Source: Candidatus Eiseniibacteriota bacterium (lineage in GTDB: Bacteria; Eisenbacteria; RBG-16-71-46; CAVPCR01). From it: a DNA stretch of 64,000 bases. The position numbers and the translations under genes were made by a program. This document shows, piece after piece, positions 3,001-59,567 of this stretch. The notes beneath the pieces are model-generated. The model was not told the DNA's origin. It was given only the letters and a program-made list of their open reading frames with translations, and made no database searches. The stretch covers positions 384,001 through 448,000 of the forward strand of contig CAVPCR010000004.1 in the NCBI GenBank assembly GCA_963702435.1, given 5' to 3'. The first letter of the stretch is position 1. Each line of letters opens with the position of its first letter.

Positions 3001-5887
3001 CGAGGAGATCTCCGAGCGCGCGCCGTACACGATCCGCTGGCAGAGCGCGGGACGTATCGACAACGTGCGCGTCGAGTACCGGCTGCAATCGGCCGCTCCG
3101 TGGCAGGAGATCGCGGCGTCGGCGCCGAACACGGGTGCCTACCTGTGGGCCGACCCGCCGGAGGTGACGAGCGACGAGAGCGCGGCGGAGATCCGGGTGA
3201 CCGATGTGGCCACGGTTCCCGATCTCACGCAGACCGTGAGTCCGCCGTTCACGCTCGTCGACCGCGTGCTCGCGCCGACCGCGCCCGCGCCCGGAGCCGT
3301 CGCCTGCGAGGCGGATACGCTCACGATCGCCTGGGGCTCGCGCGGGGCGATCCCGAACGTGACGATCGAGTGGCGGCTCGATCAGGGCTCGCCGTGGCAG
3401 CCGGTGGCGACGAACATCTCGAACACGGGATCGGCAGTCTGGTCGACGCCGGATCTCCCGGCGACAGCAGATGCGGTCGAGCTCCGCCTGCGCCATGCGA
3501 CCGACCCGAGCGTGGTCGCCGCCTGGGGGCCCGTAACGCTCCGGAACCGCACGCTCGCGTTCCTCCGGCCGCTCGGCGGCGAGGTCTACTCAGAGGGCGA
3601 CGCGGTGCCGGTGAGCTGGAGCTCCGATTGCATCGATTCGGTGCGCGTCGAGGCCCGCGTCGACGCCGAGTCACCGTGGCAGCTCCAGGGCCCCGGCGTG
3701 TGGTCCAACACGGGCCAGATCATCTGGAGTGTCATCCGCGTCGACACCAACCAGAACGCGGTCCAGCTCCGCATCGCCGACGCCTCCGACCCCGATCTGG
3801 TCGTCGCCGTGTCGCAGCCGTTCACCGTGCTCAACCGGGTGCTCGACGTCGTGCGCCCGACGGTCACCGACAGCCTGTCGGAGACCGCGACCTTCCCGAT
3901 CGCCTGGGACTGGGTCGGCACGTTGCAGCGCGTGACGATCGATTACCGTCTCGATCCCGCGCTCGACTGGGTGCCGATCATCAGCAACATCGTGAACACC
4001 GGCACCTACACTTGGACCGTGCCGCTCGTGGATCGCGACCACCGGAGCGCCCAGATCCGGGTCTTCGACACCAACAACCCGAACACGATCGACGAGGGGG
4101 ACTCCTTCATCATCATCAACCGGGCTCTTGCGCTGACGCGCCCGGCGCCGGGCGACACCCTGACCGAGGCGACGGCCGACACGATCCGCTGGTCGACGCG
4201 CGGCGTCGTGCCGACGGTGAATGTGAGCTATCGCGAGCAGCCGGTCGGCGCCTGGCAGGTGATCGCGGCGGGCATTTCGAACACCGGCGTTCTGGCCTGG
4301 TCGGTGCCCGAGGTGAGCGGCGATGTCGTGGGCGCCCAGGTGCGGGTCGAGTCCGCCACGGCGCTTGAGGTGTCCGCCGTGAGCCTGCCCTTCGTCATCC
4401 TCGATCGCTCCTTCGCCGTGCTCTCGCCCGCCGGCGGCGAGAGCTGGTCCGAGGCGACGACCCAGACGATCCGCTGGCAGTCGGTGGGCACCATCGAGTC
4501 GGTGAAGATCGAGCTCCTGCTCCCGGGCGGCGGGACGCAGCTCATCGTCGCCTCGACTCCGAACGACGGCGCCGAGACGTGGTTCATTCCCGATGTCCCG
4601 GCGGGCATCGCCGGCGCCCGGATCCGCTTGACCGACACGCGCCCGCCCTCGGCCAGCGCCACCTCGGCCCCGTTCGACATCGTGAACCGCGCGCTGGCCT
4701 TCACCGCGCCGCCCCCCGAGCCTGGGGTCCAGTGGCGGATCGGGTCGGCCCAGGTCATCCGCTGGACCTCGACCGGGGCCATCGATTCGGTGGCGATCGA
4801 GCTCGGCCGGAACGGCCCGGGAGGCGCCTTCGAGACCCTGATGCCGGCGACGATCAATGACGGGGACTTCGCCTGGGAGGTGACCGGTCCCGAGACGTGG
4901 AATGCGGTGCTTCGCGTGCGCGACCTGCGCGTCGCCGATATTCGCACAGAGACGCCGCTTCTTGCGCTCTATGATCTGGTGCCGCCGGATCTGTGCGCCG
5001 ATTTCGACCACTCGGGCGGCGTATCGCTCGACGAGATCGTGCGCGTCGAGGGCATCATCGTCGGCGCGCTCGCGGCCAGCGAGGCGGACTCGCTCGCCGC
5101 GGACGGGACGCGTGACGCGGCGATCGATATCCGCGACATCCTGTGCGGCGTGGACGAGATGATTGCGGGCGAACGCGCCGGGAAGGGGCGGCCGTTCGTC
5201 GATGCGGGAGTGGAGGAGGCGGCCGCGCGCGGCGTCGTCGTCGGTGTCGGGGCGGTGGCGGAATCCGGGAGCGTGCCGATCACGGTCGAGGCGCGGGTGC
5301 TGCTCGCCGGCCTCCTCGTCGCGATCGAGATCGACGGCGGGAGCGGCGAGCCCGCGCTCGGGGCGGAGGGCGCAGGGCTCGCCCTCGCCTGGACCGCGAC
5401 CGGACCCGGCCGTTTCACGGCGACCGTGCGCCGCGAACCCGGCGGCGCGGGGCTTGCGGCCGGGACGAGCACGCCGCTCCGCGTGCTCGTGCCGGCGAGC
5501 GGCGGGGGCGGGGCGGTCGTGCGCATCGTGCGCGCCGAGGCGGTGGCAATGGACGCGACCCTTCTCCCCGTGCACATCGCCGGCGGGGCCGCGGCCGTCG
5601 TGCCGCCCCGGGTCGCCCTCGGCCAGAACCGGCCGAATCCGTTCAATCCGGTGACCGTGATCCCCTTCGAGCTGCCGGCGGCCGCGCGCGTCACGCTCGC
5701 GGTGCACGACGTGAGCGGACGCCTGGTCTCGCGTCTCGTCGATGGTGCGGTGTTGCCGGCCGGCTACCACGCCGTGCGCTGGGACGGCCACGACGCGCGC
5801 GGCGCCGTCGTGCCGAGCGGCATCTACTTCGCCACGCTCCGCGCCGGCGGCGAGACCATCACCCGCAAGATGACCGTCATCCGCTGA
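1..5887 (+). CDS. Giant secreted/surface protein, 5' end outside the window: about 8 PKD domains, about 10 Ig-like 'W..G...I.W' repeats, dockerin-like segment, C-terminal FlgD-Ig domain
   Basis: Repeated 'YLWTFGDG...NPSHTY...VTLRVTD' PKD signature. Repeated 'APxxGxxWSEGxTQTIxW' units. Dockerin-like pair 'ADFDHSGGVSLDEI...AADGTRDAAIDIRDI'. C-terminus 'QNRPNPFNP...WDG...SGIYF...TRKM'. The frame is open at the window edge. Confidence 0.9.
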   Translation, partial: TYATGGVYTVALVVTDPGGLTATDLTSATVSGTPVAEANGPYGANLGQAIAFSSAGSIDPDGQALTYLWTFGDGTTSTGENPSHTYATGGVFNVVLRVTDPGGLFDEDTATATVNRPPVAEANGPYAGNQGAPIAFSSAGSSDPEGQALAYLWTFGDGTTSTAANPSHAYTPGGTFNVTLRVTDPGGLFSEDTATATVNRPPVAEANGPYAGNQGAPIAFSSAGSSDPEGQALAYLWTFGDGTTSTAANPSHAYTPGGTFTVTLRVTDPGGLFSEDTATATVNRPPVADANGPYAGNEGQPIVFSSAGSSDPEGQALTYLWTFGDGATSTAANPSHTYVTGGTFNVTLRVTDPGGLFTEDATQAAVGRTPVANANGPYTGNEGQPIAFSSAGSGDPDGQQITYLWTFGDGATSTAANPSHTYVTGGTFTVTLRVTDPDNLFAEDTAQARVNRTPAAEANGPYSGNPGAPIAFSSAGSSDPDGDGLTYRWSFGDGATSTQANPSHAYAAGGTYTVTLRVTDPGGLFNEDTAQAVVNRPPVAEANGPYAGNQGAAISFSSTGSSDPDGQALTYLWTFGDGTTSTAANPTHSYTPGGSFIATLRVTDAGGLFAEDTAPVAVNRPPVADAGPALYTTDRGVPASFSSAGSSDPDGDPLTYLWEFGDGTTSTQANPTHIYTAGGAFTVNLRVRDPGGLTGTDLAAMSVNDLAVTAPATGAVWSEGSTQTITWSVVGTVDTVVVEYRTGAALPWIPLGTVIRDTELEWQVPDIGTSDETGVRVRVRRPNGLLSDPSDPFTIRNRVLLVTAPGGDAIYETEGTNIAWTSVGFIERVNLQYRLAPGSPWLPIAADEPDDGSFAWTLPEVTSDQERAQVRVLDAADTLATSDASAEFAILDRTLAVDSPDLGVVWSEGTTQTIAWTVDGPVDSVAIEFRRSPLDGYEQIARRRASAGSYSWSVAGVTADAPEAQVRVRETATRIDPVAGVSPVFTIQNRTLAITAPVAGEEISERAPYTIRWQSAGRIDNVRVEYRLQSAAPWQEIAASAPNTGAYLWADPPEVTSDESAAEIRVTDVATVPDLTQTVSPPFTLVDRVLAPTAPAPGAVACEADTLTIAWGSRGAIPNVTIEWRLDQGSPWQPVATNISNTGSAVWSTPDLPATADAVELRLRHATDPSVVAAWGPVTLRNRTLAFLRPLGGEVYSEGDAVPVSWSSDCIDSVRVEARVDAESPWQLQGPGVWSNTGQIIWSVIRVDTNQNAVQLRIADASDPDLVVAVSQPFTVLNRVLDVVRPTVTDSLSETATFPIAWDWVGTLQRVTIDYRLDPALDWVPIISNIVNTGTYTWTVPLVDRDHRSAQIRVFDTNNPNTIDEGDSFIIINRALALTRPAPGDTLTEATADTIRWSTRGVVPTVNVSYREQPVGAWQVIAAGISNTGVLAWSVPEVSGDVVGAQVRVESATALEVSAVSLPFVILDRSFAVLSPAGGESWSEATTQTIRWQSVGTIESVKIELLLPGGGTQLIVASTPNDGAETWFIPDVPAGIAGARIRLTDTRPPSASATSAPFDIVNRALAFTAPPPEPGVQWRIGSAQVIRWTSTGAIDSVAIELGRNGPGGAFETLMPATINDGDFAWEVTGPETWNAVLRVRDLRVADIRTETPLLALYDLVPPDLCADFDHSGGVSLDEIVRVEGIIVGALAASEADSLAADGTRDAAIDIRDILCGVDEMIAGERAGKGRPFVDAGVEEAAARGVVVGVGAVAESGSVPITVEARVLLAGLLVAIEIDGGSGEPALGAEGAGLALAWTATGPGRFTATVRREPGGAGLAAGTSTPLRVLVPASGGGGAVVRIVRAEAVAMDATLLPVHIAGGAAAVVPPRVALGQNRPNPFNPVTVIPFELPAAARVTLAVHDVSGRLVSRLVDGAVLPAGYHAVRWDGHDARGAVVPSGIYFATLRAGGETITRKMTVIR
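322..858 (+). repeat. Near-identical 252-bp tandem PKD-coding repeats
   Basis: About 322-573 and 574-825 are almost identical at DNA level; more diverged units follow to about 2100. Confidence 0.85.
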
Positions 5888-27737: not shown

Positions 27738-27885
27738 CTTGCTCTTCCTCGGGGGATTCCACCAACCACCAAAGAGACCAAGGACCCGGTGAGCAAGGCC
27801 GGTCGCTGTCCGGGATCGGTAACCGCGTGGTGGATTGTCAGCGTGCCGGTCAGCGTGCCGGCGTGGGCGACTCGGCCCCTCCGCG

Positions 27886-28003
27886 CGGATCGAGCCACCG
27901 AGAATCGAGCCGCTGAGATCCGAGCTATCGAGATCCGAGCCGCCGAGATCCGAGCCGCCGAGATCCGAGCTATCGAGATCCGAGCCGCCGAGATCCGAGC
28001 CGC
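27886..28003. repeat. 15-bp tandem repeat (GAGATCCGAGCCGCC / GAGATCCGAGCTATC), about 8 units
   Basis: Directly visible periodicity with two unit variants. Confidence 0.92.
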
Positions 28004-28368
28004 GGTCCTGGTCGATCGCCGACAACCTGATCCGAGTGCTCGATCCCGCAACCGGCATGGTGTTGTCGGCCGAGCGCGCGTCGAATCCGGTTCGCCCTCG
28101 TCGAGAGGGCAGCCCCCGGCCAGCGACGCTCCCCGCTACCACCCTTTGTCCAGTCCGGCCCGGCAACCCGGGACATCCGGCCGTGACCGGCCATGAAGGT
28201 CGTAACGGAACGAACTCCTGGGTTTCGGACCGGGGGGCGCGGTGCTGGTGGCCGTCGCTGGCCCTTACCACGCGGCAACCGTGTCGTTGCGGTGAACGCC
28301 TGTGATGGACCGCGGGCTCCTGCATTGATACTGATTGGACTACAGCGCCGATGCGGGCGGTGACCGCA

Positions 28369-28403
28369 AGGGATAGGAGTTTCCATTCGTCGCTGCGCCG
28401 GGC
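28369..28403 (-). mobile_element. Degenerate oriIS-like terminus of the IS91/ISCR-like element
   Basis: Reverse complement cccggcgcagcgacgaatggaaactcctatccct closely matches 30470-30503. Confidence 0.75.
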
Positions 28404-28490
28404 GGGGGCTTCGCCTGAGAAGTGCGCGGATGGAGAGCGCCACAACCCCGCATGCGCCGCCTGATGGGCGACCGTGCCACCGGCCCAGCG

Positions 28491-29100: not shown

Positions 29101-29358
29101 CCGAGAGTGGCCCGCCCGCTGGTGCCGATAGCGGGATAGAATGCCGCTCAGGCCCAAGGTGCGCTATCGGACCCCGTGTCGCGAGTGAAAATCGCGTAAC
29201 CTCCTGGAGAGGCGCCCTGCGGTGAGAAACCGCCGTCGCTCATGCCAGTGGTCTATCCCGGCTGAGGCGCCAGGTTGCTGTGACACGCGGCTGCCGCGGA
29301 GCCCGGTGCGGGAGCGGGGCGAACGGAGCGCGAGGTTCTGAGAGGGAGAGCGGAAAGG

Positions 29359-30270
29359 GTGATCGAGATCATGTCGCCGCGGGATGCGATCCAGTCCGAG
29401 TTCGCGCTCGGCGCGGCGGAGTCCGATCCGGGGCCGCCGCCGGCCTGGATCACCGAGCCCGCGAACGAGGAGGCGATCGCGAGCGCGCTCGCCGAGCTCG
29501 ATCCTGAGCAGCAGGCGGCGGTCACGCACGGCGAAGGGCCGCTCCTCATTGTCGCCGGCGCCGGCACCGGGAAGACGCGCGTCATTGCGCATCGCATCGC
29601 CTATCTCATCGCCGCCAGGAAGGCCGAGCCGTCCGAGATCCTCGCGCTCACCTTCACCGAGCGCGCCGCGGCGGAGATGGAGGCGCGGGTCGATCTCCTC
29701 GTCCCCTATGGCTACACGGACATGTGGATCTCGACCTTCCATGCCTTCGGCGACCGTATCTACCGCGAGTACGCGCTCGAGATGGGGCTCTCCGATGCGG
29801 CGGTCGTCCTGAACGAGGCGGAGCGGCTCGTCTTCTTCCGCGAGCGGCTCTTCCGCCTCCCGCTCCGGCGCTTGCTGCCGCTCGGAAACCCGGTGCGCCA
29901 CCTGGCGGCGCTCCTGCGCGTCGTCGCGCGGGCGAAGGACGAGGGGGTGACGCCCGAACGCTACGTCGAGCACGCGCGCATCGAGCTCGATGCAGCGGCG
30001 GCGGAGGCGGCGGCCGCCGCCGATGATCTCGACGCCGGCGCCCGCCTCGCCGCGGCGCGCCGACAGCTCGAGATCGCCGAGACCTACCGGGCCATGGACG
30101 AGGAGCTGCACGCGGCCGATCGCATCGACTTCGGCGATCAGCTCCTCCTCACGCTCCGCCTCCTCCGCGAGCAGGAGCACGTCCTCGCCCAGGTGCGCCG
30201 CCGCTTCCGCTAATCGCGGTCGCCGATCGCGTGCACGCCTTCGTCGATCACCTCGAGCTCCTGGTGGATG
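29359..30270 (+). pseudogene. Truncated UvrD/PcrA-type helicase
   Basis: 'AGAGTGKT', 'LTFTERAA.EM', 'STFHAF', 'IDFGD'. Stops at 'RRRFR*' just before the expected Walker B (VDEFQD). A short 'DRVHAFVDHLELLVDA' piece then runs into an element end. Confidence 0.85.
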
Positions 30271-30509
30271 CCGATCATCCTCGGCAGCGCGAGGGGAGAG
30301 GTGCGCCCAGCGGGGACCGGGGGTCGGTCCGCGGGACCGCCTCGCCGCGCGGCGGCCGTGGCCACCCCGCGCCAACACCACACGCTGACGCGCGGCCGCC
30401 GCTCACGCCACCGATTAGATGCGCCGCCGCCGCCGGTCACGCCGCTTCGCCCCCCGTTCCCCGCCTCCTCCCGGCGCCGCGACGAAAGGAAATTCCTATC
30501 CCTATCCCT
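30268..30509 (+). mobile_element. Transposase-less 3' end (oriIS region) of the IS91/ISCR-like element
   Basis: Diverged copy of the 3' non-coding region seen at 35750-36021, ending GACGAAAGGAAATTCCTATCCCT plus ATCCCT. Confidence 0.85.
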
Positions 30510-31912: not shown

Positions 31913-32011
31913 AGGGATAGGAATCTCCTTTCGTCAATAGCCCGGGAGGAGGAGGAGAACGGGGAGCCAAGCCGCGCGCGCGACCGACCGGGAGGCGTCC
32001 GCGGCGTGGCG
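31913..32011 (-). mobile_element. 99-bp terminal (oriIS) piece of the IS91/ISCR-like element, inverted
   Basis: Reverse complement matches the last about 99 bp before 36021, ending ctattgacgaaaggagattcctatccct. Confidence 0.88.
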
Positions 32012-34248: not shown

Positions 34249-34444
34249 TATCTGCCTGTGCCTCCCGAAAACTGTCTCTCTGTCCCTCCCGAAAACCCCG
34301 TAGCCGCCTGCCCCAATTGAGTATGCGCCCGCTCGGCCTCGCCGTCCTGCCGTTCTTCCCGTGCCGACCAGCGGAATCGGGTACTCCCTTGCGTCGTGGT
34401 AGTCTCCCTGCTCTCCCCGCAGGCCCGAGCGGTTGCCGCGACCC

Positions 34445-35749
34445 ATGACGCCTATCTTCGCCGCCCTCTTCGCGTTCCTCGGCGCCAGCCTTCGTTCCCG
34501 GGCCTCGATGCAGCTTGAGATCCTCGCGCTCCGGCATCAGTTGGCCGTCTGCCAGCGATCTCTGAAGCGACCGCGTCTCCGGCCCGCCGACCGCCTCCTC
34601 TGGCCCTGGCTCGCCCGCCTCTGGCCGCGCTGGCGAGAAGCCCTCATGATCGTTCAGCCGAGAACCGTCATCACCTGGCAACGGCGCCGCTTCCGCGAGC
34701 ACTGGACCCGTCTCTGCCGCTCGGGGAAACCTGGACGGCCGTTGGTAGCGAAAGAAGTGCGTGTTCTCATCCGGCGGCTGTCGGCCGCCAATCCACTCTG
34801 GGGAGCACCGAGGATTGTCGGCGAGCTCGCCAAGATCGGAATCGCCGTGACCAAGGCCACGGTCGAGAAGTACACGCTCGCCAACTGGCATCCCCACCTG
34901 CACGTGCTCGCCACCGACGGCGCCTTTCGGCCCGACGGCACGTTCGTGCCGCTCGGTGTTCACTCGCTCGCGGTGCTGACCGAGGCGTTCCGCCGCGCCG
35001 TGCTCCGCGCCTTCGTCCAGCGCGGCCTGTTCAGCGCCGAGGTGGCCGCCTCCATGCGCGCCTGGCCCCACTCCGGCTTCCATGTCCACAACGCCGTGCG
35101 GCTCGATGGGGATGACCTCGGCGGCCTCTTGCCGCTCGCTCGCTACGCAGCCCGCGCCCCCCTCGCCCTCACCCGCATCACCTACGACGCTGCAAAGCCG
35201 CAGGTCCTGGTTGCCTCCGACAAGGCCGAAGGGCCCACCGCCGGGACGCATGCCTTCGCTCCTCTCGACTTCCTTGCCCAGCTCCTCACCCACATCCCGC
35301 GCCAGGGCGAACACCTCGTGCGCTACTACGGCGCGTATGCGAGCCGCACCCGCGGCACCTGGCGCCGGCAAGGGATCGGCCCCTGGGTCGAGCGGCAGCG
35401 CGGCGAGGGGGACCAAGAGGACGAGCCACCGGGTGCACCCCGCGATGCCAACGCTGATCCTGGCGGTGACCCGGTGGTGCCACCTCCGGAACCGCTATCC
35501 CCATCGCGGGCCGCGCTCAGGAAGCGCTGGGCGGAACTCCTCCGTCGCCTCTACGAGGTCGATCCGCTGAGTTGCCCGCGGTGCGGGGGCGAGATGCGGA
35601 TCATCGCCTTCCTCCTCGATCCACCGGTGATCGACGCCATCCTCCGCCACCTCCGCCGCGCTGCCTACGACGCGCGGGCCGGCCCGTGGGCGGAGGTGGT
35701 TGGGAGCAATGCGGTGGCGGGGGACGCCGGCCCGGCGGGGTGCGGCTAG
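34445..35749 (+). CDS. Chimeric transposase: N-terminus of an integrase-core (rve)-type IS protein fused in frame to the IS91/ISCR HUH domain
   Basis: 'LEILALRHQL...IVQPRTVITW...GRP...NPLWGAPRIVGEL..IGI.V...TVEKY' joined at 34873 to 'TLANWHPHLHVLATDG'. Confidence 0.85.
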   Translation: MTPIFAALFAFLGASLRSRASMQLEILALRHQLAVCQRSLKRPRLRPADRLLWPWLARLWPRWREALMIVQPRTVITWQRRRFREHWTRLCRSGKPGRPLVAKEVRVLIRRLSAANPLWGAPRIVGELAKIGIAVTKATVEKYTLANWHPHLHVLATDGAFRPDGTFVPLGVHSLAVLTEAFRRAVLRAFVQRGLFSAEVAASMRAWPHSGFHVHNAVRLDGDDLGGLLPLARYAARAPLALTRITYDAAKPQVLVASDKAEGPTAGTHAFAPLDFLAQLLTHIPRQGEHLVRYYGAYASRTRGTWRRQGIGPWVERQRGEGDQEDEPPGAPRDANADPGGDPVVPPPEPLSPSRAALRKRWAELLRRLYEVDPLSCPRCGGEMRIIAFLLDPPVIDAILRHLRRAAYDARAGPWAEVVGSNAVAGDAGPAGCG

Positions 35750-36021
35750 CCCGGCCGGCCGCGGCCAGCGCGCGGTTTGGGGTGCTGCCGATCACCATCG
35801 GCAGCGCAAGGGGAGAGGTGCGCCCAGCCGCGACCGGGCGTCGGTCGGCGGGGCCGCATCGCGGTGCGGCGGCCGCGGCCACCCCGCGGCAACGTCGGGC
35901 CACGACGCGCAGTCGCCGGTCACGCCACGCCGCGGACGCCTCCCGGTCGGTCGCGCGCGCGGCTTGGCTCCCCCTTCTCCTCCTCCTCCCAGGCTATTGA
36001 CGAAAGGAAATTCCTATCCCT
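34873..36021 (+). mobile_element. 5'-truncated IS91/ISCR-like element, copy A
   Basis: Near-identical to 52986-54134; ends GACGAAAGGAAATTCCTATCCCT about 270 bp after the stop. Confidence 0.92.
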
Positions 36022-37113: not shown

Positions 37114-38352
37114 TTACCTGAGGACAATGGCCTTATGGGTGAGGTCTCGGCCGGCGGCGTGGATGCGGTAGAAGTAGACGCCGGAGGAGACCGGTTGCCC
37201 GCCATCAGTGCGGCCGTCCCAGGTGGCGGCGTGCTCGCCGGGGTCTTCGAAACGGTCGACGAGCCGGCGGATGAGGCGACCACTGGGCGTGAGGACATCG
37301 AGAGTTACGTGCCCGCGAGTCGGGAGCTGGTAGGTGATGCGGGCAGATCCGGGCGAGGGGTTCGGCGCTATCCCGCGAAGCGCAAACGGTGGGGCCATCG
37401 GCACGTGATCCCGGACGGCGTAGACGAGTCCGAGACAGTTCGTGCCCTTGGGGACGCCGATGTCGAGAAAGATGTTCCCTGGTTCGTTCGCAAAGGGGTA
37501 CCCGAAGGTGTCCCATCCTTCGCAGAACTCAGAGAATTCATAGATGAAGTGCCCGCCGATCATGTAGTTGACCGAGACATCGGCGATCTCAGTTATCCCG
37601 GTATAGAAGGTGGTGCTGTTGTCGTCATCGTTATAGGCGTCGTGGTCGTTGGGAAGGTCGTAGATGTCCCAGAGGTGGGTGGCGACGGCACGCTCCGCCG
37701 ATTCCCCGCGCGGGTAAGGGGTGTTTCCGCCCCATTCGAGGTCGTAGGTCTCGGGCAGCGTGTCGTTGAGGGCACCGTTGTAGACGTAATCTTCGAACAG
37801 GAAATCGTTGGTGGCCCCGCACGGGTAGAACCACGCCCAGCCTTCACTGTACGCGCAGTATGGGTCGGTGACAGCCCCCCAGTGATGGCTGTTGCAGGGG
37901 GTGGTCGGCGGTGGGAGGGCCGCAAGGGTGTTCAACACGTGATGGGCATATTCATGGCCGATGATGTCGAAGTCCCACTCATCGAATCGAATGTCGCTTG
38001 GTGGATTGCTGTAGCCATCGAGGTGGATGATCGCATCTAGGCGTGTGTAGTAGGAGTATGTTTGTGGTAGCGTGCGGTCCCAAATGCACTGGACTGGCGG
38101 GGCAGTGTAACCGGTCGCCGTCTCGGTGAAGTGGGCGAGGTCGTAAAGGTCGTATGTGATGTTGAAAGCACCGCGCTCGGTGCCGGTATAGGTGAAGGCC
38201 CCATAGAGGCCTTCGAGATCGATGAAGTTGGCGTTGTTGACGTACCGGGCCGCAAGGGGAAGCCAGACGCCATATCCATAGAGGTAGTCGTCTTGATCGA
38301 CAACGGTCCGGTAGTCGACCAGGTCGGTGGTCCATGTCGGGATGAAGAGCTG
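37114..38352 (-). pseudogene. 3' part of a transposon-interrupted secreted zinc metalloprotease with FlgD-Ig tail
   Basis: The frame stays open upstream of the ORF-track start to 38352 and contains 'WDFDIIGHEYAHH' (HExxH), 'AYSEGWA' and C-terminal 'APNP...WDG...SGVYF'. Confidence 0.8.
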
Positions 38353-38407
38353 TGAGCGTGGGCGCGGTGTTTGATGGCATTTGAGTCACGCATGTCGAGG
38401 GGAGTGT

Positions 38408-39247
38408 TTATCGCGCCTTGGCGCGGCCGCGGTCGGGGACCTTCGGCACGGTGAAGACCTCGAGGTAGAGCTTTTCGTCGAGCTGGCGTGCATCACGCTG
38501 AACGGCAGCATCGAGGAGCTCTCCGGCCATGGTCATGAGGATGCGGTAGTTGCCGGCGGCGTGCTCGCAGAGCGTGGTCATGAGCTCGGTCGTCATCAAG
38601 TGCGGGTTTCCGGTCTGGTTGAGGGCGTGACGCAAGCATTCGAGCAGTTCCTGTGGAGTGGCGGGCTGGAGGACGAGGCGAACACGCATCCGGCTGCCGA
38701 GGGGAAGGAGCTCCTCGCCGCGGAAGTTCTCGGTCAGGCGAGAGTCACCGCCGAGGACGACGGTGAGGAGCGCGCGGGAGTCGAGCTCGGTGGCGCAGAG
38801 CAGGCGGAGCTCGTTGAGCACGGCGGGCCGCATCTCCTGTGCCTCGTCGACGATGAGCACGGGACGGAGGAGAGCGGCTTCGATGTGCGCTTGCCAGCGT
38901 TCGCGGAGCACCCGGGCTCCGGCCCAGCGGTTGTGGGGTGAGAGCTGAACGCCGAACAGGTCGCCGAGCTCGCGGTAGAAGTCGGGGACGCCGCTCTGGG
39001 GACGGGTGAGGATCCCGACCATGAGGTCACGATGTCCGGAGAGCTTGTCGACGAGGAGCCGCAGCGCGACCGACTTGCCGAGTCCGGGATCGCCGGTGAT
39101 CAGGGCGAAGCCTCCTTCGCGGGTCAGGTTCTCGACGCGCCACGAGAAGTGCTCGAGCTTGGGAGTGAGGAGGAGCGCCTCGATGGGGACCTCGGGCGAG
39201 AAGGGGTTCCACTTGAGGCCATGGAGCGAGAGGAGCTTCGGGTTCAT
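38408..39247 (-). CDS. ExeA/AAA_22-family transposition ATPase
   Basis: 'GLKWNPF', Walker A 'GDPGLGKS', Walker B 'LIVDEAQ'. Confidence 0.9.
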   Translation of the reverse strand: MNPKLLSLHGLKWNPFSPEVPIEALLLTPKLEHFSWRVENLTREGGFALITGDPGLGKSVALRLLVDKLSGHRDLMVGILTRPQSGVPDFYRELGDLFGVQLSPHNRWAGARVLRERWQAHIEAALLRPVLIVDEAQEMRPAVLNELRLLCATELDSRALLTVVLGGDSRLTENFRGEELLPLGSRMRVRLVLQPATPQELLECLRHALNQTGNPHLMTTELMTTLCEHAAGNYRILMTMAGELLDAAVQRDARQLDEKLYLEVFTVPKVPDRGRAKAR

Positions 39248-40764
39248 GGCTGGTCCTCCTGGAGAGTGGTCTGCGGGGGCGGCGCGTGGTGCGCGGCGAG
39301 TGGATACGGTGCGGGTTTCGGGAGATAGGCCGGCGGGAGGCCGGTGGCGGCGTAATCTTTCATCAGCTGGCGCATCAACGGCGCCATGCCGGACTCGGTC
39401 GGCGGATCCTGATCGCGGGTGGCGAGGGGATCTTCAGGCAGTCGACGCCTGAGGCCGTCAGCGTTACGTGCCTTGTCGAGGGGGTAAAGTTGACAGAGTA
39501 CCGCTCCCGTGCGTTCGTCGACGAGGTGAACCTGAGAGAGGTCCCAGGTGGCGTAGCGCACGGCGACGCGTTCGAGGGTGCGGTAGTGCGCGGGGATCTC
39601 GAAGCGGCATCCCTCGAGCGTCAGGGTGCCGTCGCTACGGCGCTGAGTGCGCCGCACTTCGATCGTGAAGGCGAGGCGCAGCGGCTGGCTGTCGGGGCTC
39701 GATCGGCCGACGTCGGGTCCTTGGAGGTAGCGTTCGACGGGGGACTGGTGGATCTCGGAGTGCACGGTGCGGTTGTACTCCATCTCGGCCCAAGCCTGGG
39801 TGGCCTCGTTGAGAAGCGGCAGCGTCAGGTCGCGCACTCCTTCGAGCATGGCGATCAGCCGTCCTTCGAGCTGGGCCCAGAAGACTTCTTGTTTGGCGTT
39901 CTGGTAGGCGGAGTAGGGCAAGGTCAGGTGATGGAGGATGCCGAGCCGGGCCAGGCCCTGGGTCACCTCGCCAGCCTTCATGGCGGTGCCGTTGTCGCTC
40001 ATCAACGACCTCGGCAACGAGCGCTTCTGAATCGCCTGCGAGAGACCATGCACGAGGTTCTCCGCGTTCTCAGCGTGGTACCATTGCGCGTGACAGACCA
40101 ATCGTGAGCGATCATCGAGGATCGCCAGAACCTGCGGGATCACCCACTCGCCGTCGGGCGTGAGCACCTTCTTCGAGCCGGCGTGGAAGTCGAGATGCCA
40201 AAGCCCGTGGACGTACTCGGCCTCGAAGCTACGCACCTCGCGCTCATCGAGCCGTGCTTCGGCGCGTCGCACCCCGGTGGTGTCGGCGCTGGAGACCCGG
40301 CGCCGCTTCCACAGCCCGTTGGCCTTCATGAACCGACGGACGGTCGAGTACGAGGGTAGCGGCCCGAGGGTCGGATCCGCACCCGCCAGCACTGCGAGGT
40401 TGTCGTAGTGCAGCGCGTAGCTCCAACCGCGGTGGGCCTTGTACAGTTCGTGAATCGCCTGCTTGAGCCCGTCCCCGATCGCGAGCGCCCGGCCGGAGTC
40501 CTTGCGGATCTTGCGCCGAAGCACCCTGACTGGATCGAACCGCTCCCGCTTCGCCTGGTGATACCAACGTTCGATGGTCGACACCCCGAACTGCATCGGT
40601 CGAGCGGTCACGGGGTGGAGCCACTGCTTCTCGGCCAGCTTCCGGAGCTCGCCCTGAAGCTCGCCACGCGCCGGCGGCGCCGCCAGGAGCGGGCCGATCA
40701 CCGAGAAGCGCAGATGCGCCCAGCGTTCGTGGACCGTGAGCTTACGGTTCTCGTCGTCTGCCAT
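39244..40764 (-). CDS. DDE (rve) transposase with Mu-like C-terminal domain
   Basis: 'LWHLDF', 'LDDRSR', 'SDNG', 'AKQE', 'YNRTVHSE', 'DGTLTLEG..FE'. Confidence 0.9.
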   Translation of the reverse strand: MADDENRKLTVHERWAHLRFSVIGPLLAAPPARGELQGELRKLAEKQWLHPVTARPMQFGVSTIERWYHQAKRERFDPVRVLRRKIRKDSGRALAIGDGLKQAIHELYKAHRGWSYALHYDNLAVLAGADPTLGPLPSYSTVRRFMKANGLWKRRRVSSADTTGVRRAEARLDEREVRSFEAEYVHGLWHLDFHAGSKKVLTPDGEWVIPQVLAILDDRSRLVCHAQWYHAENAENLVHGLSQAIQKRSLPRSLMSDNGTAMKAGEVTQGLARLGILHHLTLPYSAYQNAKQEVFWAQLEGRLIAMLEGVRDLTLPLLNEATQAWAEMEYNRTVHSEIHQSPVERYLQGPDVGRSSPDSQPLRLAFTIEVRRTQRRSDGTLTLEGCRFEIPAHYRTLERVAVRYATWDLSQVHLVDERTGAVLCQLYPLDKARNADGLRRRLPEDPLATRDQDPPTESGMAPLMRQLMKDYAATGLPPAYLPKPAPYPLAAHHAPPPQTTLQEDQP

Positions 40765-40821
40765 CGCGTTCGCCTCCCTTTCGGGCGGCCGAGCCTGGCC
40801 GCCGTGATGTGGGAGCGGACG

Positions 40822-41466
40822 CTAATCGCGGTCACCCTCGGCCCGCACCGCGCGTCTTCTGCGGGTGGCCCGCGGGGTCACCCGGCGCCGCACATAGCTT
40901 GCGCATTCCGGCGCCGACGCGGTGGTGATCGGGGAGAGGAATCGCAGGAGGGCGATCAGCCGGGAACGGTCATCGCCAGGGAAGCGACCGAGGAGCACGC
41001 GGGGTAGATCCATCGCGAGCAGGCGTCCGGTGAACCGGCCGCGGGCCACGCTCCAGAACCGGCTACGCGCGAAGGTGGTGCGCCACCACCGGCGCCACCG
41101 GGCCAGGGTCCGGGAGCTCACCCCCAGCCATTGCCGAAGCTGCCGTTGAGCGCGCCCCCGCCCTCGCATCGCCGCCAGGACGACCACCGCCGCGGAGTAA
41201 ACCCGCCGGCCCAAGAAGCGTACCGAAGGTGGCGTCAGCCGCCGCCGGCACCCCTCCACGGCGCAGCACAAGCTCAGTCGGAGGTCATACCGGACCGCCA
41301 ACCGCTCTGGAAGACCCCGCGGCTTACGGGGGTAGTTCGCCTGGTCGACCCTCCCGCCGCACCACCCGCACCCCCCGCGGCGGGCCGCCCGGGCGAGATC
41401 CTGGTCGTACTGAAAAAGGACCTCGTAGAGCCGCTCGTCCCTGAGCAGATCCTGGTACAATCCCAT
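40822..41466 (-). CDS. Transposon accessory protein with Cys motifs and HTH (DUF6431-like)
   Basis: 'CGWCGG', 'SLCC...CRRR.TPPSVRFLGRRVY', 'RTLARWRRWW'. Confidence 0.7.
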   Translation of the reverse strand: MGLYQDLLRDERLYEVLFQYDQDLARAARRGGCGWCGGRVDQANYPRKPRGLPERLAVRYDLRLSLCCAVEGCRRRLTPPSVRFLGRRVYSAAVVVLAAMRGRGRAQRQLRQWLGVSSRTLARWRRWWRTTFARSRFWSVARGRFTGRLLAMDLPRVLLGRFPGDDRSRLIALLRFLSPITTASAPECASYVRRRVTPRATRRRRAVRAEGDRD

Positions 41467-41632
41467 CCTCCTTCGTCTTTGCTGGACTGAAGGAGGAAAC
41501 CCCCTCGGGGCGCTTGAATCAAGCTCCTTGAGGGGGTTCTGCTTGCACTCCCTGATGGCGCCTCGGACGATTCCATCAGTGATCGTGATCCGAAACGCCG
41601 TCCCCGACCATCAACTTTCTTGCTTACGCTGA

Positions 41633-42874
41633 CTGATCGACTGATACGTTGTACATGCCCCAACTGCCAGAGCCGTCCGTCTCGGTCGCCTGGTCAAATC
41701 GGAAGTAGAATGTGCCGCCGGGGACGGTAAACTGGTACTGTCCGTTGGGGTGAGTGTAGTAAAGTTCAGTAAGAAGATACTTCATCGCCCTATTGGTCTG
41801 TGGCCCTGTCACGTTGTCGTAGTCCTGGTAGAGATACCTTCCCAAGATGTCGAAGTCGCGGACGACGCGCACGGGATAAGGATCCACGGTGAAGCCGGTT
41901 TTGCGGGCGCGGATCTCGCCGGTCATCGCGGCGGTGCCGGCAGTGAAGCGGGCTTTGTGATCGGGAAGCTCGGTGATGGTGCCTAAAGATGCCGGGACGA
42001 GCCACCACTCCTCCATGTCGAGGATCGTACCCGGAGGATACTCGTACCAGAAGAGCATGCAGTATCCGCTTGTGACTTGAAAGTATGGGAAGTTAACGGA
42101 ACGGACAGGACCGGCTGTGCAATCACCCTGGTAGCGGGGACTCAGGGATCCGTGGTCACGGGCAGGGGGCTGGGAATGCGGGGGATCGATGCAACAAGGG
42201 TCAGGGCGCTTGTTGACCTGGGGTGCGACGTCTGGTTCGGGGGGAACAGAGACGGTGGGTGGTGGGGGAGTGGTGACGGGGTGGCTTGTGCTATCGCTTC
42301 GAGGTGCACCCTCTGGGTATGCCTGGAGGATGTCGTAGGCAAATGGCGGCGTGGGGGAGGAGGGATCAGGGGCGCGTGGACGGTAACCGTGGATGCAAAC
42401 AGGAAGGGATGCCGCTGCCAGAGGGGTATCGGGAGATGCAGGCCCGTCGGCCGTGCAGGACCACGGACGGATGGGGTTGATGCACTGTGCGCGGATGGTG
42501 TCGCTTCCGCAAGTGGTGGCAACGAAACGCACAGAGAGTTGGAGGGGCGTATGTGGCTTGAATGAACCACGCCAGTGCTTGCCCTTCCGCGTCAAGAGGA
42601 CACCGCCCTCACGCGTCCAGACGGTGCGCGACGTGGTGTCTTGGGGCGCAGCGATAGCTATGCCCGGACAACCGAGTGATGCCAGGGCAAGATCCATTGG
42701 CGCATCAGCGGTAAAGCTCGCAGTTACCGAGACCGTGTCCCCGACGCTAATCTCGGTCTTGGAAGCAGTGAGTTGAACGCGAACGTTCGGAGCAGGCTCT
42801 TGGGGCGCTGCGGAGGTCGAGGAGATTGCCAAAACAAATGCAGCGCAAGCAAGGGCCGGGTTGAGATGCTTCAT
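41633..42874 (-). pseudogene. 5' part of the interrupted secreted metalloprotease
   Basis: AGGAGG RBS, ATG 42874, signal peptide. The frame ends within a few codons of entering the transposon IR. Confidence 0.72.
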
Positions 42875-43038: not shown

Positions 43039-44293
43039 TCATCCGGCGGCTGTCGGCCGCCAATCCACTCTGGGGAGCACCGAGGATTGTCGGCGAGCTC
43101 GCCAAGATCGGAATCGCCGTGACCAAGGCCACGGTCGAGAAGTACACGCTCGCCAACTGGCATCCCCACCTGCACGTGCTCGCCACCGACGGCGCCTTTC
43201 GGCCCGACGGCACGTTCGTGCCGCTCGGTGTTCACTCGCTCGCGGTGCTGACCGAGGCTTTCCGCCGCGCCGTGCTCCGCGCCTTCGTCCAGCGCGGCCT
43301 GTTCAGCGCCGAGGTGGCCGCCTCCATGCTCGCCTGGCCCCACTCCGGCTTCCATGTCCACAACGCCGTGCGGCTCGATGGGGATGACCTCGGCGGCCTC
43401 TTGCCGCTCGCTCGCTACGCAGCCCGCGCCCCCCTCGCCCTCACCCGCATCACCTACGACGCTGCAAAGCCGCAGGTCCTGGTTGCCTCCGACAAGGCCG
43501 AAGGGCCCACCGCCGGGACGCATGCCTTCGCTCCTCTCGACTTCCTTGCCCAGCTCCTCACCCACATCCCGCGCCAGGGCGAACACCTCGTGCGCTACTA
43601 CGGCGCGTATGCGAGCCGCACCCGCGGCACCTGGCGCCGGCAAGGGATCGGCCCCTGGGTCGAGCGGCAGCGCGGCGAGGGGGACGCGGAGGACGAGCCA
43701 CCGGGTGCACCCCGCGATGCCAACGCTGATCCTGGCGGTGACCCGGTGGTGCCACCTCCGGAACCGCTATCCCCATCGCGGGCCGCGCTCAGGAAGCGCT
43801 GGGCGGAACTCCTCCGTCGCCTCTACGAGGTCGATCCGCTGAGTTGCCCGCGGTGCGGGGGCGAGATGCGGATCATCGCCTTCCTCCTCGATCCACCGGT
43901 GATCGACGCCATCCTCCGCCACCTCCGCCGCGCTGCCTACGACGCGCGGGCCGGCCCGTGGGCGGAGGTGGTTGGGAGCAATGCGGTGGCGGGGGACGCC
44001 GGCCCGGCGGGGTGCGGCTAGCCCGGCCGGCCGCGGCCAGCGCGCGGTTTGGGGTGCTGCCGATCACCATCGGCAGCGCAAGGGGAGAGGTGCGCCCAGC
44101 CGCGACCGGGCGTCGGTCGGCGGGGCCGCATCGCGGTGCGGCGGCCGCGGCCACCCCGCGGCAACGTCGGGCCACGACGCGCAGTCGCCGGTCACGCCAC
44201 GCCGCGGACGCCTCCCGGTCGGTCGCGCGCGCGGCTTGGCTCCCCCTTCTCCTCCTCCTCCCAGGCTATTGACGAAAGGAAATTCCTATCCCT
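43039..44293 (+). mobile_element. 5'-truncated copy B carrying the same rve/IS91 fusion junction as copy A
   Basis: 43039-43144 matches 34767-34872; the IS91 part starts at 43145; ends ...TTCCTATCCCT. Confidence 0.92.
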
Positions 44294-44738
44294 GAGATGC
44301 GGATCATCGCCTTCCTCCTCGATCCACCGGTGATCGACGCCATCCTCCGCCACCTCCGCCGCGCTGCCTACGACGCGCGGGCCGGCCCGTGGGCGGAGGT
44401 GGTTGGGAGCAATGCGGTGGCGGGGGACGCCGGCCCGGCGGGGTGCGGCTAGCCCGGCCGGCCGCGGCCAGCGCGCGGTTGGGGGTGCTGCCGATGATGA
44501 TCGGTTGCGCGAGGGGAGAGGCGCGCCCTGCGGGGATCGGGTGTCGCTCGGCGGGGCCGCTTCGCGGTGCGGCGGCCGCGGCCACCCCGCGGCAACGTCG
44601 GGCCACGACGCGCAGTCGCCGGTCACGCCACGCCGCGGTCGCCTCCCGGTCGGTCGCGCGCACCACCTCGCTCCCCGTTCTCCTCCTCCTCCCGGGCTAT
44701 TGACGAAAGGAAATTCCTATCCCTTATCCCTTATCCCT
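44294..44738 (+). mobile_element. Tandem second 3' end (copy B') from a different allele, ending (TATCCCT)x3
   Basis: Restarts at gagatgcggatcatc (as at 43863); the non-coding part differs at many positions from copy B. Confidence 0.9.
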
Positions 44739-45453
44739 GCGGCCAGAAGGGGCTCGTCGTGATGCCCCAGGTCCTCGCGAACACCTCGGGGAGGACGAGC
44801 ATCGCCATGTCGCAGCGCACCCCGTCGCACTGGTGGGCGATACGGGACAGCTCGCCGAGCATCGCCTCCTGCAAGGCGGGGTTGCCGTAGTTCAACTGGA
44901 AGGTGTCGGGCCAGCCGTCAAAGTAAGGGTCGCGGCCGTACGCGAGGATCCGGTTCCCGGCGCGCGCCCAGTTCTGGGGCTCGGCCGCGAGCTTCGCCTC
45001 GGTCCCGGCCACGAAGTACTCGGCGTGCTCCGCCACCCACCGGTGGTCCGGCGCCATGTGGTTGGGGACGAAATCGAGGATCAGGCGGAGATCGCGGCGC
45101 CGGAGCCTCTCGCGCAGGCGGGCGAGAGCCTGATCACCGCCGAAGTCCTCGTGGACTCGGTAGTCGCGCACCGCGAAGCACGAGCCCGTGACGTCGGCCT
45201 CTGAGAAATCGGGCAGCACCCGCCGATACTCGGCGAGCCACTCGGGCTTCGACCGGGAGACGCGCCGCGCGGCGTCCCCCGTCTGCCAAACGCCGAGGAA
45301 CCAGACGAGGTCGAAGCCGTTCTCGGCCAGTTGGTCGAGCTCCTCATCCGTCACATCGTCGAGCGTCGCCGGGCGGCGGAGCTCCCGCGAGAGCTCCGCC
45401 AGCCTGACGCGCGTGTTGATCTGGAAGAGCGACGGGTACCGTGGTGAGGACAT
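44731..45453 (-). pseudogene. GH13 alpha-amylase-family gene truncated at its 3' end
   Basis: 'LDFVPNH', 'DGVRCDMA'; ends at 'FWPQG*' with the stop supplied by the TATCCCT repeat. Confidence 0.88.
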
Positions 45454-52190: not shown

Positions 52191-52410
52191 CACCGGGATC
52201 GAAGTGATAGTGACCGGGCAGGCGACCGCTGATCGCGCGCTGGTCGAGAAGGCCTATCGATTGCTCGTCGAGTTCCGGGACCGGGCCCCGGAGTCGTACC
52301 GCGGGAAGCTTCCGTGTACCTCGTTGCCGGGGGTTCGGCCGCTGACCCGGGGAAGCCGCTGACTCCCGCCCCGATAGTCCTGGCATCGATCGTGATCCGG
52401 TCCCGGGGGC

Positions 52411-53862
52411 GTGGTCGCATCTCTCGGCAACGACCCGAAGACGCGGGCCGCGGGCACCCGTCTGTCCGCTACCGGCGCCCGCACCGGTGTCTACCGGCCG
52501 CGCCGTCCCCAGGCCTCGCCGCTCTACCGGCTGATCGAGGAGCACTTCGAGCGGGTGGCCACGGCATGGGAGGAGCGCTACGAGCCGCGCTACGGTCGGT
52601 GGCGGCCGGTCATGCGCGCGGTGGTCGAGAAGTTTCTCGATTGCGGCTTGCTCGAGCCGGGCTTCGCGCGGGTGCGTTGCGGCGACTGCGGGGCCGAGTT
52701 CCTGCTTGCCTTCAGCTGCAAGTGCCGCTACTTCTGTCCGTCCTGCCACGCCAAGCGCCTGGCCCTCTGGTGCGACTGGCTCGAGCGCGAGCTCCTGCTG
52801 CCGATCCCGCATCGGCAGTACGTCTTCACCGTCCCCAAGCGCCTGCGACCCTACTTCCTCTACGACCGCCGTCTGCTCGGGCTGTTGAGCCGTGTCGCCT
52901 ACGACACCATGCGCGACTTCATGCGCGCCACCCTCGGCGCGGATGACGTCGTCCCCGGCGTCATCTCCTCGATCCAGACCCATGGCACGCTCGCCAACTG
53001 GCATCCCCACCTGCACGTGCTCGCCACCGACGGCGCCTTTCGGCCCGACGGCACGTTCGTGCCGCTCGGTGTTCACTCGCTCGCGGTGCTGACCGAGGCG
53101 TTCCGCCGCGCCGTGCTCCGCGCCTTCGTCCAGCGCGGCCTGTTCAGCGCCGAGGTGGCCGCCTCCATGCTCGCCTGGCCCCACTCCGGCTTCCATGTCC
53201 ACAACGCCGTGCGGCTCGATGGGGATGACCTCGGCGGCCTCTTGCCGCTCGCTCGCTACGCAGCCCGCGCCCCCCTCGCCCTCACCCGCCTCACCTACGA
53301 CGCTGCAAAGCCGCAGGTCTTCGTCATCTCCGACAAGGCCGAAGGGCCCACCGCCGGGACGCATGCCTTCGCTCCTCTCGACTTCCTTGCCCAGCTCCTC
53401 ACCCACATCCCGCGCCAGGGCGAACACCTCGTGCGCTACTACGGCGCGTATGCGAGCCGCACCCGCGGCACCTGGCGCCGGCAAGGGATCGGCCCCTGGG
53501 TCGAGCGGCAGCGCGGCGAGGGGGACCAAGAGGACGAGCCACCGGGTGCACCCCGCGATGCCAACGCTGATCCTGGCGGTGACCCGGTGGTGCCACCTCC
53601 GGAACCGCTATCCCCATCGCGGGCCGCGCTCAGGAAGCGCTGGGCGGAACTCCTCCGTCGCCTCTACGAGGTCGATCCGCTGAGTTGCCCGCGGTGCGGG
53701 GGCGAGATGCGGATCATCGCCTTCCTCCTCGATCCACCGGTGATCGACGCCATCCTCCGCCACCTCCGCCGCGCTGCCTACGACGCGCGGGCCGGCCCGT
53801 GGGCGGAGGTGGTTGGGAGCAATGCGGTGGCGGGGGACGCCGGCCCGGCGGGGTGCGGCTAG
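52411..53862 (+). CDS. Full-length IS91/ISCR-family HUH rolling-circle transposase
   Basis: Zn-binding 'CG..C...SCKCRYFCPSC', 'HRQYVFTVP', HUH 'WHPHLH', single Tyr 'LARYAARAP', 'HLVRYYG', C-terminal 'CPRCGGEM'. Confidence 0.95.
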   Translation: MVASLGNDPKTRAAGTRLSATGARTGVYRPRRPQASPLYRLIEEHFERVATAWEERYEPRYGRWRPVMRAVVEKFLDCGLLEPGFARVRCGDCGAEFLLAFSCKCRYFCPSCHAKRLALWCDWLERELLLPIPHRQYVFTVPKRLRPYFLYDRRLLGLLSRVAYDTMRDFMRATLGADDVVPGVISSIQTHGTLANWHPHLHVLATDGAFRPDGTFVPLGVHSLAVLTEAFRRAVLRAFVQRGLFSAEVAASMLAWPHSGFHVHNAVRLDGDDLGGLLPLARYAARAPLALTRLTYDAAKPQVFVISDKAEGPTAGTHAFAPLDFLAQLLTHIPRQGEHLVRYYGAYASRTRGTWRRQGIGPWVERQRGEGDQEDEPPGAPRDANADPGGDPVVPPPEPLSPSRAALRKRWAELLRRLYEVDPLSCPRCGGEMRIIAFLLDPPVIDAILRHLRRAAYDARAGPWAEVVGSNAVAGDAGPAGCG

Positions 53863-54134
53863 CCCGGCCGGCCGCGGCCAGCGCGCGGTTTGGGGTGCTG
53901 CCGATCACCATCGGCAGCGCGAGGGGAGAGGCGCGCCCAGCCGCGACCGGGCGTCGGTCGGCAGGGCCGCATCGCGGTGCGGCGGCCGCGGCCACCCCGC
54001 GGCAACGTCGGGCCACGACGCGCAGTCGCCGGTCACGCCACGCCGCGGACGCCTCCCGGTCGGTCGCGCGCGCGGCTTGGCTCCCCCTTCTCCTCCTCCT
54101 CCCAGGCTATTGACGAAAGGAAATCCCTATCCCT
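53863..54134 (+). mobile_element. 3' non-coding arm and oriIS-like terminus of the full-length copy C
   Basis: Same arm as the other copies; variant terminus GACGAAAGGAAATCCCTATCCCT. Confidence 0.9.
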
Positions 54135-58186: not shown

Positions 58187-59478
58187 CCTACTTCCTCTAC
58201 GACCGCCGTCTGCTCGGGCTGTTGAGCCGTGTCGCCTACGACACCCTGCGCGACTTCATGCGCGCCACCCTCGGCGCGGATGACGTCGTCCCCGGCGTCA
58301 TCTCCTCGATCCAGACCCATGGCACGCTCGCCAACTGGCATCCCCACCTGCACGTGCTCGCCACCGACGGCGCCTTTCGGCCCGACGGCACGTTCGTGCC
58401 GCTCGGTGTTCACTCGCTCGCGGTGCTGACCGAGGCGTTCCGCCGCGCCGTGCTCCGCGCCTTCGTCCAGCGCGGCCTGTTCAGCGCCGAGGTGGCCGCC
58501 TCCATGCGCGCCTGGCCCCACTCCGGCTTCCATGTCCACAACGCCGTGCGGCTCGATGGGGATGACCTCGGCGGCCTCTTGCCGCTCGCTCGCTACGCAG
58601 CCCGCGCCCCCCTCGCCCTCACCCGCATCACCTACGACGCTGCAAAGCCGCAGGTCCTGGTTGCCTCCGACAAGGCCGAAGGGCCCACCGCCGGGACGCA
58701 TGCCTTCGCTCCTCTCGACTTCCTTGCCCAGCTCCTCACCCACATCCCGCGCCAGGGCGAACACCTCGTGCGCTACTACGGCGCGTATGCGAGCCGCACC
58801 CGCGGCACCTGGCGCCGGCAAGGGATCGGCCCCTGGGTCGAGCGGCAGCGCGGCGAGGGGGACCAAGAGGACGAGCCACCGGGTGCACCCCGCGATGCCA
58901 ACGCTGATCCTGGCGGTGACCCGGTGGTGCCACCTCCGGAACCGCTATCCCCATCGCGGGCCGCGCTCAGGAAGCGCTGGGCGGAACTCCTCCGTCGCCT
59001 CTACGAGGTCGATCCGCTGAGTTGCCCGCGGTGCGGGGGCGAGATGCGGATCATCGCCTTCCTCCTCGATCCACCGGTGATCGACGCCATCCTCCGCCAC
59101 CTCCGCCGCGCTGCCTACGACGCGCGGGCCGGCCCGTGGGCGGAGGTGGTTGGGAGCAATGCGGTGGCGGGGGACGCCGGCCCGGCGGGGTGCGGCTAGC
59201 CCGGCCGGCCGCGGCCAGCGCGCGGTTGGGGGTGCTGCCGATCACCATCGGCAGCGCGAGGGGAGAGGCGCGCCCAGCCGCGACCGGGCGTCGGTCGGCA
59301 GGGCCGCATCGCGGTGCGGCGGCCGCGGCCACCCCGCGGCAACGTCGGGCCACGACGCGCAGTCGCCGGTCACGCCACGCCGCGGACGCCTCCCGGTCGG
59401 TCGCGCGCGCGGCTTGGCTCCCCCTTCTCCTCCTCCTCCCAGGCTATTGACGAAAGGAAATTCCTATCCCTTATCCCT
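58187..59478 (+). mobile_element. 5'-truncated IS91/ISCR-like copy D ending (TATCCCT)x2
   Basis: Matches copy C from 'YFLYDRR' onward; lacks the Zn-binding N-terminus. Confidence 0.92.
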
Positions 59479-59567
59479 AGGAATCGCGCGTCCGAACCGC
59501 GCGTTGAAGTCCGTGGACCAGCACAGTGGCCCAGTTCACCTGGCCAGCGCCCAGCCCGGCAACGGAC

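Follow-up and report, generated by a model that had tools for sequence, protein, structure and literature searches.

ISCR-type elements are held responsible for mobilising genes for resistance and catabolism. IS91 is defined as Y2 and ISCR as Y1, according to the number of catalytic tyrosines in the HUH transposase (PMC10288648). The TnpA protein of IS91 is described as nicking the ori, after which synthesis is primed from the 3'-OH, and cleavage by HUH enzymes can be reversed (PMC5714925); the bottom strand is given as the substrate, and tetranucleotide targets (CTTG, GTTC and GTCC) are listed for IS91, IS801 and IS1294 (PMC13181058). PMC6218425 states that, up to 2018, transposition had not been demonstrated experimentally for any ISCR. 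Our literature search returned no report of terminal self-duplication at oriIS, although Toleman 2006, Mendiola 1994 and Schleinitz 2010 (on ISCR8 ends) may mention it, and a search of papers for the terminal motif described below gave unrelated primers only. The additional oriIS remnant sandwiching cargo in Yuan 2024, as cited by bioRxiv 2025.01.22.634252, is a different structure.

The window, by which we mean the whole 64,000-nt stretch analysed, contains TATCCCT 12 times against 2.2 expected, a count reached in none of 100 shuffles. The motif forms a tandem triplet, (TATCCCT)3, at 44718-44738, a doublet at 59465-59478 with AGGAAT directly after it at 59479, and a 7+6 form (TATCCCT followed by ATCCCT) at 30497-30509. 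Lone copies are located at 36015, 44287 and 54128 and, on the minus strand, at 28369 and 31913. A previous sequence-only reading of the window had placed the triple, double and 7+6 repeats and the AGGAAT correctly, omitting the single copy at 54128. Each copy is preceded by ...GACGAA(A/T)GGA(A/G)A(T/C)(T/C)CC, which marks the 3' terminus of an IS91-like element. In the source genome (G000; 4.98 Mb in 6 contigs), 11 ends bear the motif and all six TATCCCT(T)ATCCC doublets are located at element ends. Extra units of 6-7 nt are present at 4 of the 11 ends genome-wide, a fifth end has a 431-nt end fragment next to it, and copies 99% identical to one another carry different unit numbers. Set beside the relatives presented below, the tandem 7-mer falls at the short extreme of a terminal duplication that occurs across the family and varies in length. 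Our preferred reading, which we hold with somewhat better than even confidence, is that the tandem TATCCCT represents a head-to-tail duplication of the last 7 nt at an IS91/ISCR-like oriIS end, produced in the inserted element when a rolling-circle start was aborted.

The full element extends over 1826 nt (52309-54134, plus strand), with a single terminal unit and a 5'-truncated GMP synthase gene as its flank; the left flank is unrelated to the right one. Its one ORF encodes a 483-aa HUH transposase (52411-53862, plus strand) with Zn_Tnp_IS91 and Y2_Tnp domains (PF14319, E 2.7e-18; PF04986, E 9.8e-21), HPHLH at residues 198-202 and Y283, and contains no reverse transcriptase domain. The protein scores 161.7 bits with the NCBIfam IS91 family model NF033538, above the cut-off of 125, and 141.6 bits with the ISCR clade Ia model NF052416, far below the cut-off of 925. 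When aligned to ISPps1 and three other plasmid transposases, its LARYAAR motif presents one invariant tyrosine, Y283, which is the arrangement of the ISCR group (Y1) and not the pair of catalytic tyrosines of canonical IS91, IS801 and IS1294 (Y2). The oriIS is found downstream of the gene, with a conserved core common to ISPps1 and the Trichlorobacter lovleyi ends, and there are no terminal inverted repeats. Two full copies begin at the same 5' sequence (CTTCCGTG), most copies are 5'-truncated at varied points, and all intact copies finish on the same base. The element thus belongs to the IS91 family in the broad sense as a Y1 type, ISCR-like in its working and not a canonical IS91. The previous assignment of this locus to the ori end of an IS91-family element is upheld.

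A patchwork of fragments bounded by ori ends, together with a duplicated composite unit, suggests mobilisation of adjacent DNA with variable 5' ends. Between 25300 and 60800 of the window, eight ori ends are interspersed with genes that are unrelated to one another and frequently truncated (alpha-amylase, the C-terminus of GMP synthase, the N-terminus of UvrD and two AAA_14/DUF4143 ATPases), a pattern consistent with repeated one-ended capture or adjacent deletion. The composite unit, in which a truncated transposase is preceded by and fused to 106 nt of coding sequence of foreign origin, is duplicated at 99.6% (34767-36021 and 43039-44293), and an open 438-aa fusion ORF is present there at 34433-35749. 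Three element copies (window 29113-29200; G000:C4:468800-468900; G000:C1:1217300) have at their 5' side one and the same short sequence, which comes from the region upstream of a uvrD-like gene and includes the inverted repeat GATAGCG...CGCTATC; the C1 copy is a miniature element of about 250 nt. Elsewhere in the window lie a 3.3-kb rve + AAA_22 mobile unit (38348-41633) with a second copy, 99.9% identical, on C1; a 1955-aa protein (20-5887) with eight PKD repeats of 252-nt period and a FlgD-type tail; and a 15-nt tandem array of about nine copies (27876-28018).

To define where the element ends, filled and empty sites were compared in six cases: window 44293|44294 against internal copies, a C1 end against a paralogous repeat, and the loci L005, L031, L045 and L111. 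In these empty sites neither TATCCCT nor CT stands before the junction, and the ori junctions are blunt against empty homologues; a seventh comparison, L024, was ambiguous, and an exact empty allele for the 44738 junction was not found. At 54134 the final T completes an in-frame TAA at a position where the GMP synthase (guaA) of the genome itself has Glu. The empty sites and this stop codon together indicate that the terminal bases are element DNA, bluntly joined, and rule out a reading in which the element stops at TATCC and CT is target. They also answer the simplest objection to a terminal extension, namely that the empty alleles already contained TATCCCT: it is absent from them. In 35 of 37 distinct flanks, retrieved with patterns that left the two final positions free, T is the second base to follow CCTATCC. 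No tetranucleotide target is apparent beside oriIS, CT being absent from the empty sites and the sole bias seen in the true flanks being a weak one for A at +2 (80 of 165; background 0.20).

Read along the plus strand, the terminal 7 nt proper, as placed by the empty-site comparisons, occupy 44718-44724 (TATCCCT) and are followed by two exact extra copies at 44725-44738, with no microhomology to the flank. Host sequence starts at 44739, where an alpha-amylase-family gene (44739-45453, minus strand) is cut by the element end. By analogy with IS91 biochemistry, the nick would fall on the bottom strand at 44724|44725. Just inside the terminus, the imperfect palindrome GAAAGGAAATTCCTATC (44705-44721, plus strand) contains the conserved core AAATTCCTAT (44711-44720); the folding energy of the terminal palindrome is no better than that of shuffles (z-scores -0.2 to +2.0). 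This end belongs to a 431-nt 3' remnant (44294-44724, plus strand) of a different element variant. Since it differs at 23 of 419 positions from the adjoining upstream copy (43145-44293, plus strand; 5'-truncated, from element nt 678, single terminal unit), the fragment is a second variant joined bluntly to the end of that copy. Two further 5'-truncated copies lie on the plus strand, one with a single terminal unit (34873-36021) and one with an extra 7-nt unit at 59472-59478 (58187-59478). The same strand carries a 3' fragment (30269-30509) from a relative that has diverged to about 77% identity and whose single extra unit, of 6 nt, occupies 30504-30509, and the minus strand holds end fragments of 99 nt (31913-32011) and about 40 nt (28369-28408), each with a single unit. 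No sigma-70 promoter is created by the extra units.

The census covered 181 distinct ends, of which 153 came from other contigs and MAGs of metagenomes, one plasmid supplied 17 and the genome itself 11. Two scans over largely overlapping sets of 150 genomes were counted as one; the first metagenome pattern demanded TATCCCT, and short-read contigs may under-report repeats. The census flagged 16 rows, and five offset control sets (178-180 flanks each) gave 0 apiece. Three rows were removed: L008, where GATCCCT is host coding sequence; L112, where TATCTCT is doubtful as an extra unit, the orthologous site reading GATCTCT; and one nested double count. Clear duplications remain at 5 of the genome's own 11 ends and at 5 of the 153 from elsewhere; on the closed T. 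lovleyi plasmid pIAE1 they are present at 3 of 14 sites, as exact copies of 22, 28+13 and 37 nt. A search for cut-short ends in five genomes gave none distinguishable from chance matches.

In relatives, the duplications of the element's own terminus measure 6, 7, 11, 12, 13, 22, 28, 37, 42, 50, 60 and 63 nt, and the unit matches each subfamily's own end, as with TATCCAT x2 in G240:C27. Tabulating unit number over collected termini, as had been proposed from the letters of the window, upheld the end duplications in the genome and its relatives but not a fixed unit. Short units of 6-7 nt predominate in G000, and ISPps1 has 11-63 nt. For ISPps1, which we take to be ISCR8 in agreement with the pADP-1 annotation, duplications are present at 4 of 24 distinct flanks: 42 nt on pBHB, 60 nt on pCNB, and 63 and 11 nt on pAKD25. 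The 24 flanks are our own count, in which the last letter of the pattern can drop some ends, and the sample consisted of ten plasmids picked for copy number, one of them because BLAST gave two pieces. One ISPps1 site is available in both states. pAKD25 and pAKD34 share it with 421 of 421 flank bases identical, pAKD34 is without the 11-nt duplication, and over 1561 nt the two differ by this duplication plus one mismatch. A single site with and without the extra sequence indicates that, most likely, insertion comes first and the end is duplicated afterwards.

Several ends carry features of their own. On pIAE1 (L125, L129, L130; NZ_CP058410.1:162300-253000), 15 same-strand IS91-like ends lie within about 90 kb and bracket cargo including a reductive dehalogenase; four copies with the changed terminus TGAC are found at three different flanks. 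JN106175.1 and JN106170.1 (L171, L172, L179, L180) carry an ISPps1 variant that ends 7 nt past the core (CTGGATT) where the usual distance is 4 (CCGT), and this variant has propagated to seven distinct flanks. Many ends at L109-L124 (G240, G307, G287, G347) are without a transposase match in the DNA examined, and several G240 ends have TTGACA-like and TACCCT/TACTCT-like hexamers upstream of the core, resembling an outward promoter.

In total, 23 duplicated units were tabulated, including L011 (2 mismatches, below the census threshold) and leaving out the ATCC of L086 and L095. Sixteen are exact copies of the upstream end, all eight plasmid duplications being exact, and 19 show 0-1 nt of microhomology, the exceptions being three 6-nt units (3 nt, CCT) and one 28-mer. 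All 23, from three element families, stop at the terminus or within one or two mismatched bases of it. A duplication that stops exactly at the ori border, without microhomology and at an inserted end, would most simply be a transposase product.

Mechanistically, a bottom-strand nick, set by the transposase where element and flank meet, would be followed by extension of the flank's 3'-OH, a host polymerase running a few to tens of bases across the terminus. The 5' end still linked to the tyrosine would then be re-joined to the new strand (or that of a sister copy), either at its end or at a second nick. Such re-joining would duplicate the terminus and leave no remainder. Each extra unit would then record one local re-joining at that site, not a transposition round, and units of 6-7 nt, which are without the core motif, would be left behind at the next jump. 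We take the nick position and strand from IS91 biochemistry and infer the polymerase extension and the re-joining in cis. The scheme agrees with duplications that stop at the element end, vary in length, are mostly exact with little microhomology, and are missing from one allele. The recurrence of duplication starts (7 nt in 9 of 23 units, and a shared site for the units of 60 and 63 nt) counts against a polymerase that stops at random; it is better suited to a second nick and hints at preferred secondary nick sites. As a stable hairpin at the terminus is not supported, a polymerase stall there as the cause of the 6-7-nt length is speculation. Nicking and re-joining, or re-insertion, at the element's own ori had already been suggested from the sequence, and we find it the best explanation.

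A purely cis event would not, however, explain everything. Remnants of 431 nt (23 differences), 50 nt (4) and 12 nt (2) are unlike the upstream end, which calls for a second copy or later mutation, and one end reads AATCCCT and then TATCCCT. The low frequency of clear duplications among ends from other contigs and MAGs also counts against the scheme. On the minus strand at G000:C4:467022, a full transposase copy is without exactly its last 12 nt, and a complementary 12-nt stub is found in G256 behind another end. The missing 12 nt are what insertion into a resident end would leave; together with the divergent remnants, this copy indicates that joining to another copy's end happens too. Cis and trans events yield the same sequence when the tandem copies are identical.

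Joining between copies could in principle account for all the extra units. An ori end would be joined to a nick lying between a few and some tens of bases inside the ori end of another copy, by insertion or by deletion, the DNA between (or the displaced remainder) would be lost, and the units would be stubs of older ends. The two-variant remnants (431 nt at 44294, 50 nt in L005, 12 nt in G256) fit this, as do the L045 end inserted within another element's interior, the copy without its last 12 nt, the arrangement of copies in same-strand arrays, and the A at +2 in both the true flanks and 13 of 23 duplication starts (9 of them the same 7-nt site). We nevertheless consider this explanation rather unlikely: it requires a strong preference for the last ~60 nt of another copy, the exactness of all plasmid duplications speaks against it, and no remainder copies, without the matching 13-37 nt, are present among the T. 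lovleyi copies. If the palindromic end were simply prone to slippage during replication, or to repair, without any transposase step, this might explain the CCT microhomology of the three 6-nt units and the growth from two to three 7-nt units, but not the other cases. The 16 exact copies and the near absence of microhomology in 19 of 23 units argue against it, as do the termination of all units at or near the terminus in three element families and a hairpin no more stable than shuffles, and we regard it as improbable.

The sequence-only reading had proposed a telomere-like unit added once per transposition cycle, its number counting the rounds. The short units of G000, nearly all 7 nt and stacked up to three, look the part. 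Against this, duplications in relatives span 6-63 nt, to which the 431-nt remnant can be added, and the ORF has no reverse transcriptase domain. Moreover, 7 of 11 ends are without a 6-7-nt unit and 99%-identical copies differ, so unit number is not a lineage counter, and among the T. lovleyi copies no duplication is common to different insertion sites. We find the proposal barely tenable. Nor does the suggested fold-back synthesis at 59479 stand out, an inverted match of at least 6 nt being found at 2 of 181 ends against 1.06 expected by chance. An assembly or sequencing artefact, or targeting to a TATCCCT already present in the host, is equally hard to credit. The Logan contigs examined do not span 44718-44738 and give no readable sequence beyond the element end, and the apparent units L008 and L112 proved to be host sequence and doubtful, respectively. 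However, like duplications in complete plasmids of cultured strains (pIAE1, pBHB, pCNB, pAKD25) make an artefact unlikely; the same phenomenon is seen in G036 and G240, a pair with and without the duplication exists, and the motif is missing from empty sites.

Returning to the aborted rolling-circle start, the duplication is probably a transposase footprint and not a telomere. More tentatively, and at slightly less than even confidence, we suggest that Y1 IS91/ISCR transposases routinely abort initiation by ligating the covalently held 5' end to the newly extended origin, so that ori ends grow in place, DNA-templated and free of reverse transcriptase. If so, the stacks would amount to a general trace, hitherto overlooked, of ISCR transposases firing in situ, serving as a marker-free activity assay and a source of new origin variants. 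As a transposase product, the duplication would report the nick position and show activity in situ, and sequencing of the junction would offer an inexpensive assay in harmless cultured hosts (Pseudomonas sp. ADP, T. lovleyi). For annotation, the terminal bases in this lineage are element-derived, with no tetranucleotide target, and the end can change, as the spread of the TGAC and CTGGATT variants to several flanks illustrates.

Telomere repeats are short units arranged head to tail at an end. The duplications described here differ from them, and from the products of telomerase: the unit is not fixed, a reverse transcriptase is missing, and the repeats lie at a junction within the chromosome where telomeres have a free end. 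Replitron-1, a eukaryotic Y1 HUH transposon whose enzyme lineage is unrelated to the window transposase, also presents extra sequence of variable length at one end; its fuzzy ends copy the donor flank and come with target duplications, unlike the copies of the element's own terminus seen here (PMC10288648). With IS91, IS801 and IS1294 the element shares a score above the NF033538 cut-off, the lack of terminal inverted repeats and the ori orientation; those elements make no target-site duplication, and here the ori junctions are blunt and the flanks of the full copy unrelated. It differs from them in having one catalytic tyrosine and not the Y249/Y253 pair (PMC5714925) and no CTTG/GTTC/GTCC-type target (PMC13181058), and terminal self-duplication is undescribed in the passages of these sources that concern them. 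The closest plasmid-borne transposase is that of the T. lovleyi pIAE1 element (WP_224963446.1; 37-42% identity), which likewise forms same-strand arrays with cargo and exact end duplications, its ends being TCCT or TGAC and its duplications 13-37 nt long, unlike those of the window element. ISPps1 is more distant in its transposase (only 31-33% identical), and the window element differs from it in ending in CCCT. The two nonetheless share, in the manner of ISCR (Y1), an HUH transposase with one conserved tyrosine, an oriIS downstream of the gene with an AA(A/T)TTCCTAT core followed by a few bases, ragged and variable 5' ends, captured neighbouring DNA and, in ISPps1 too, terminal duplications.
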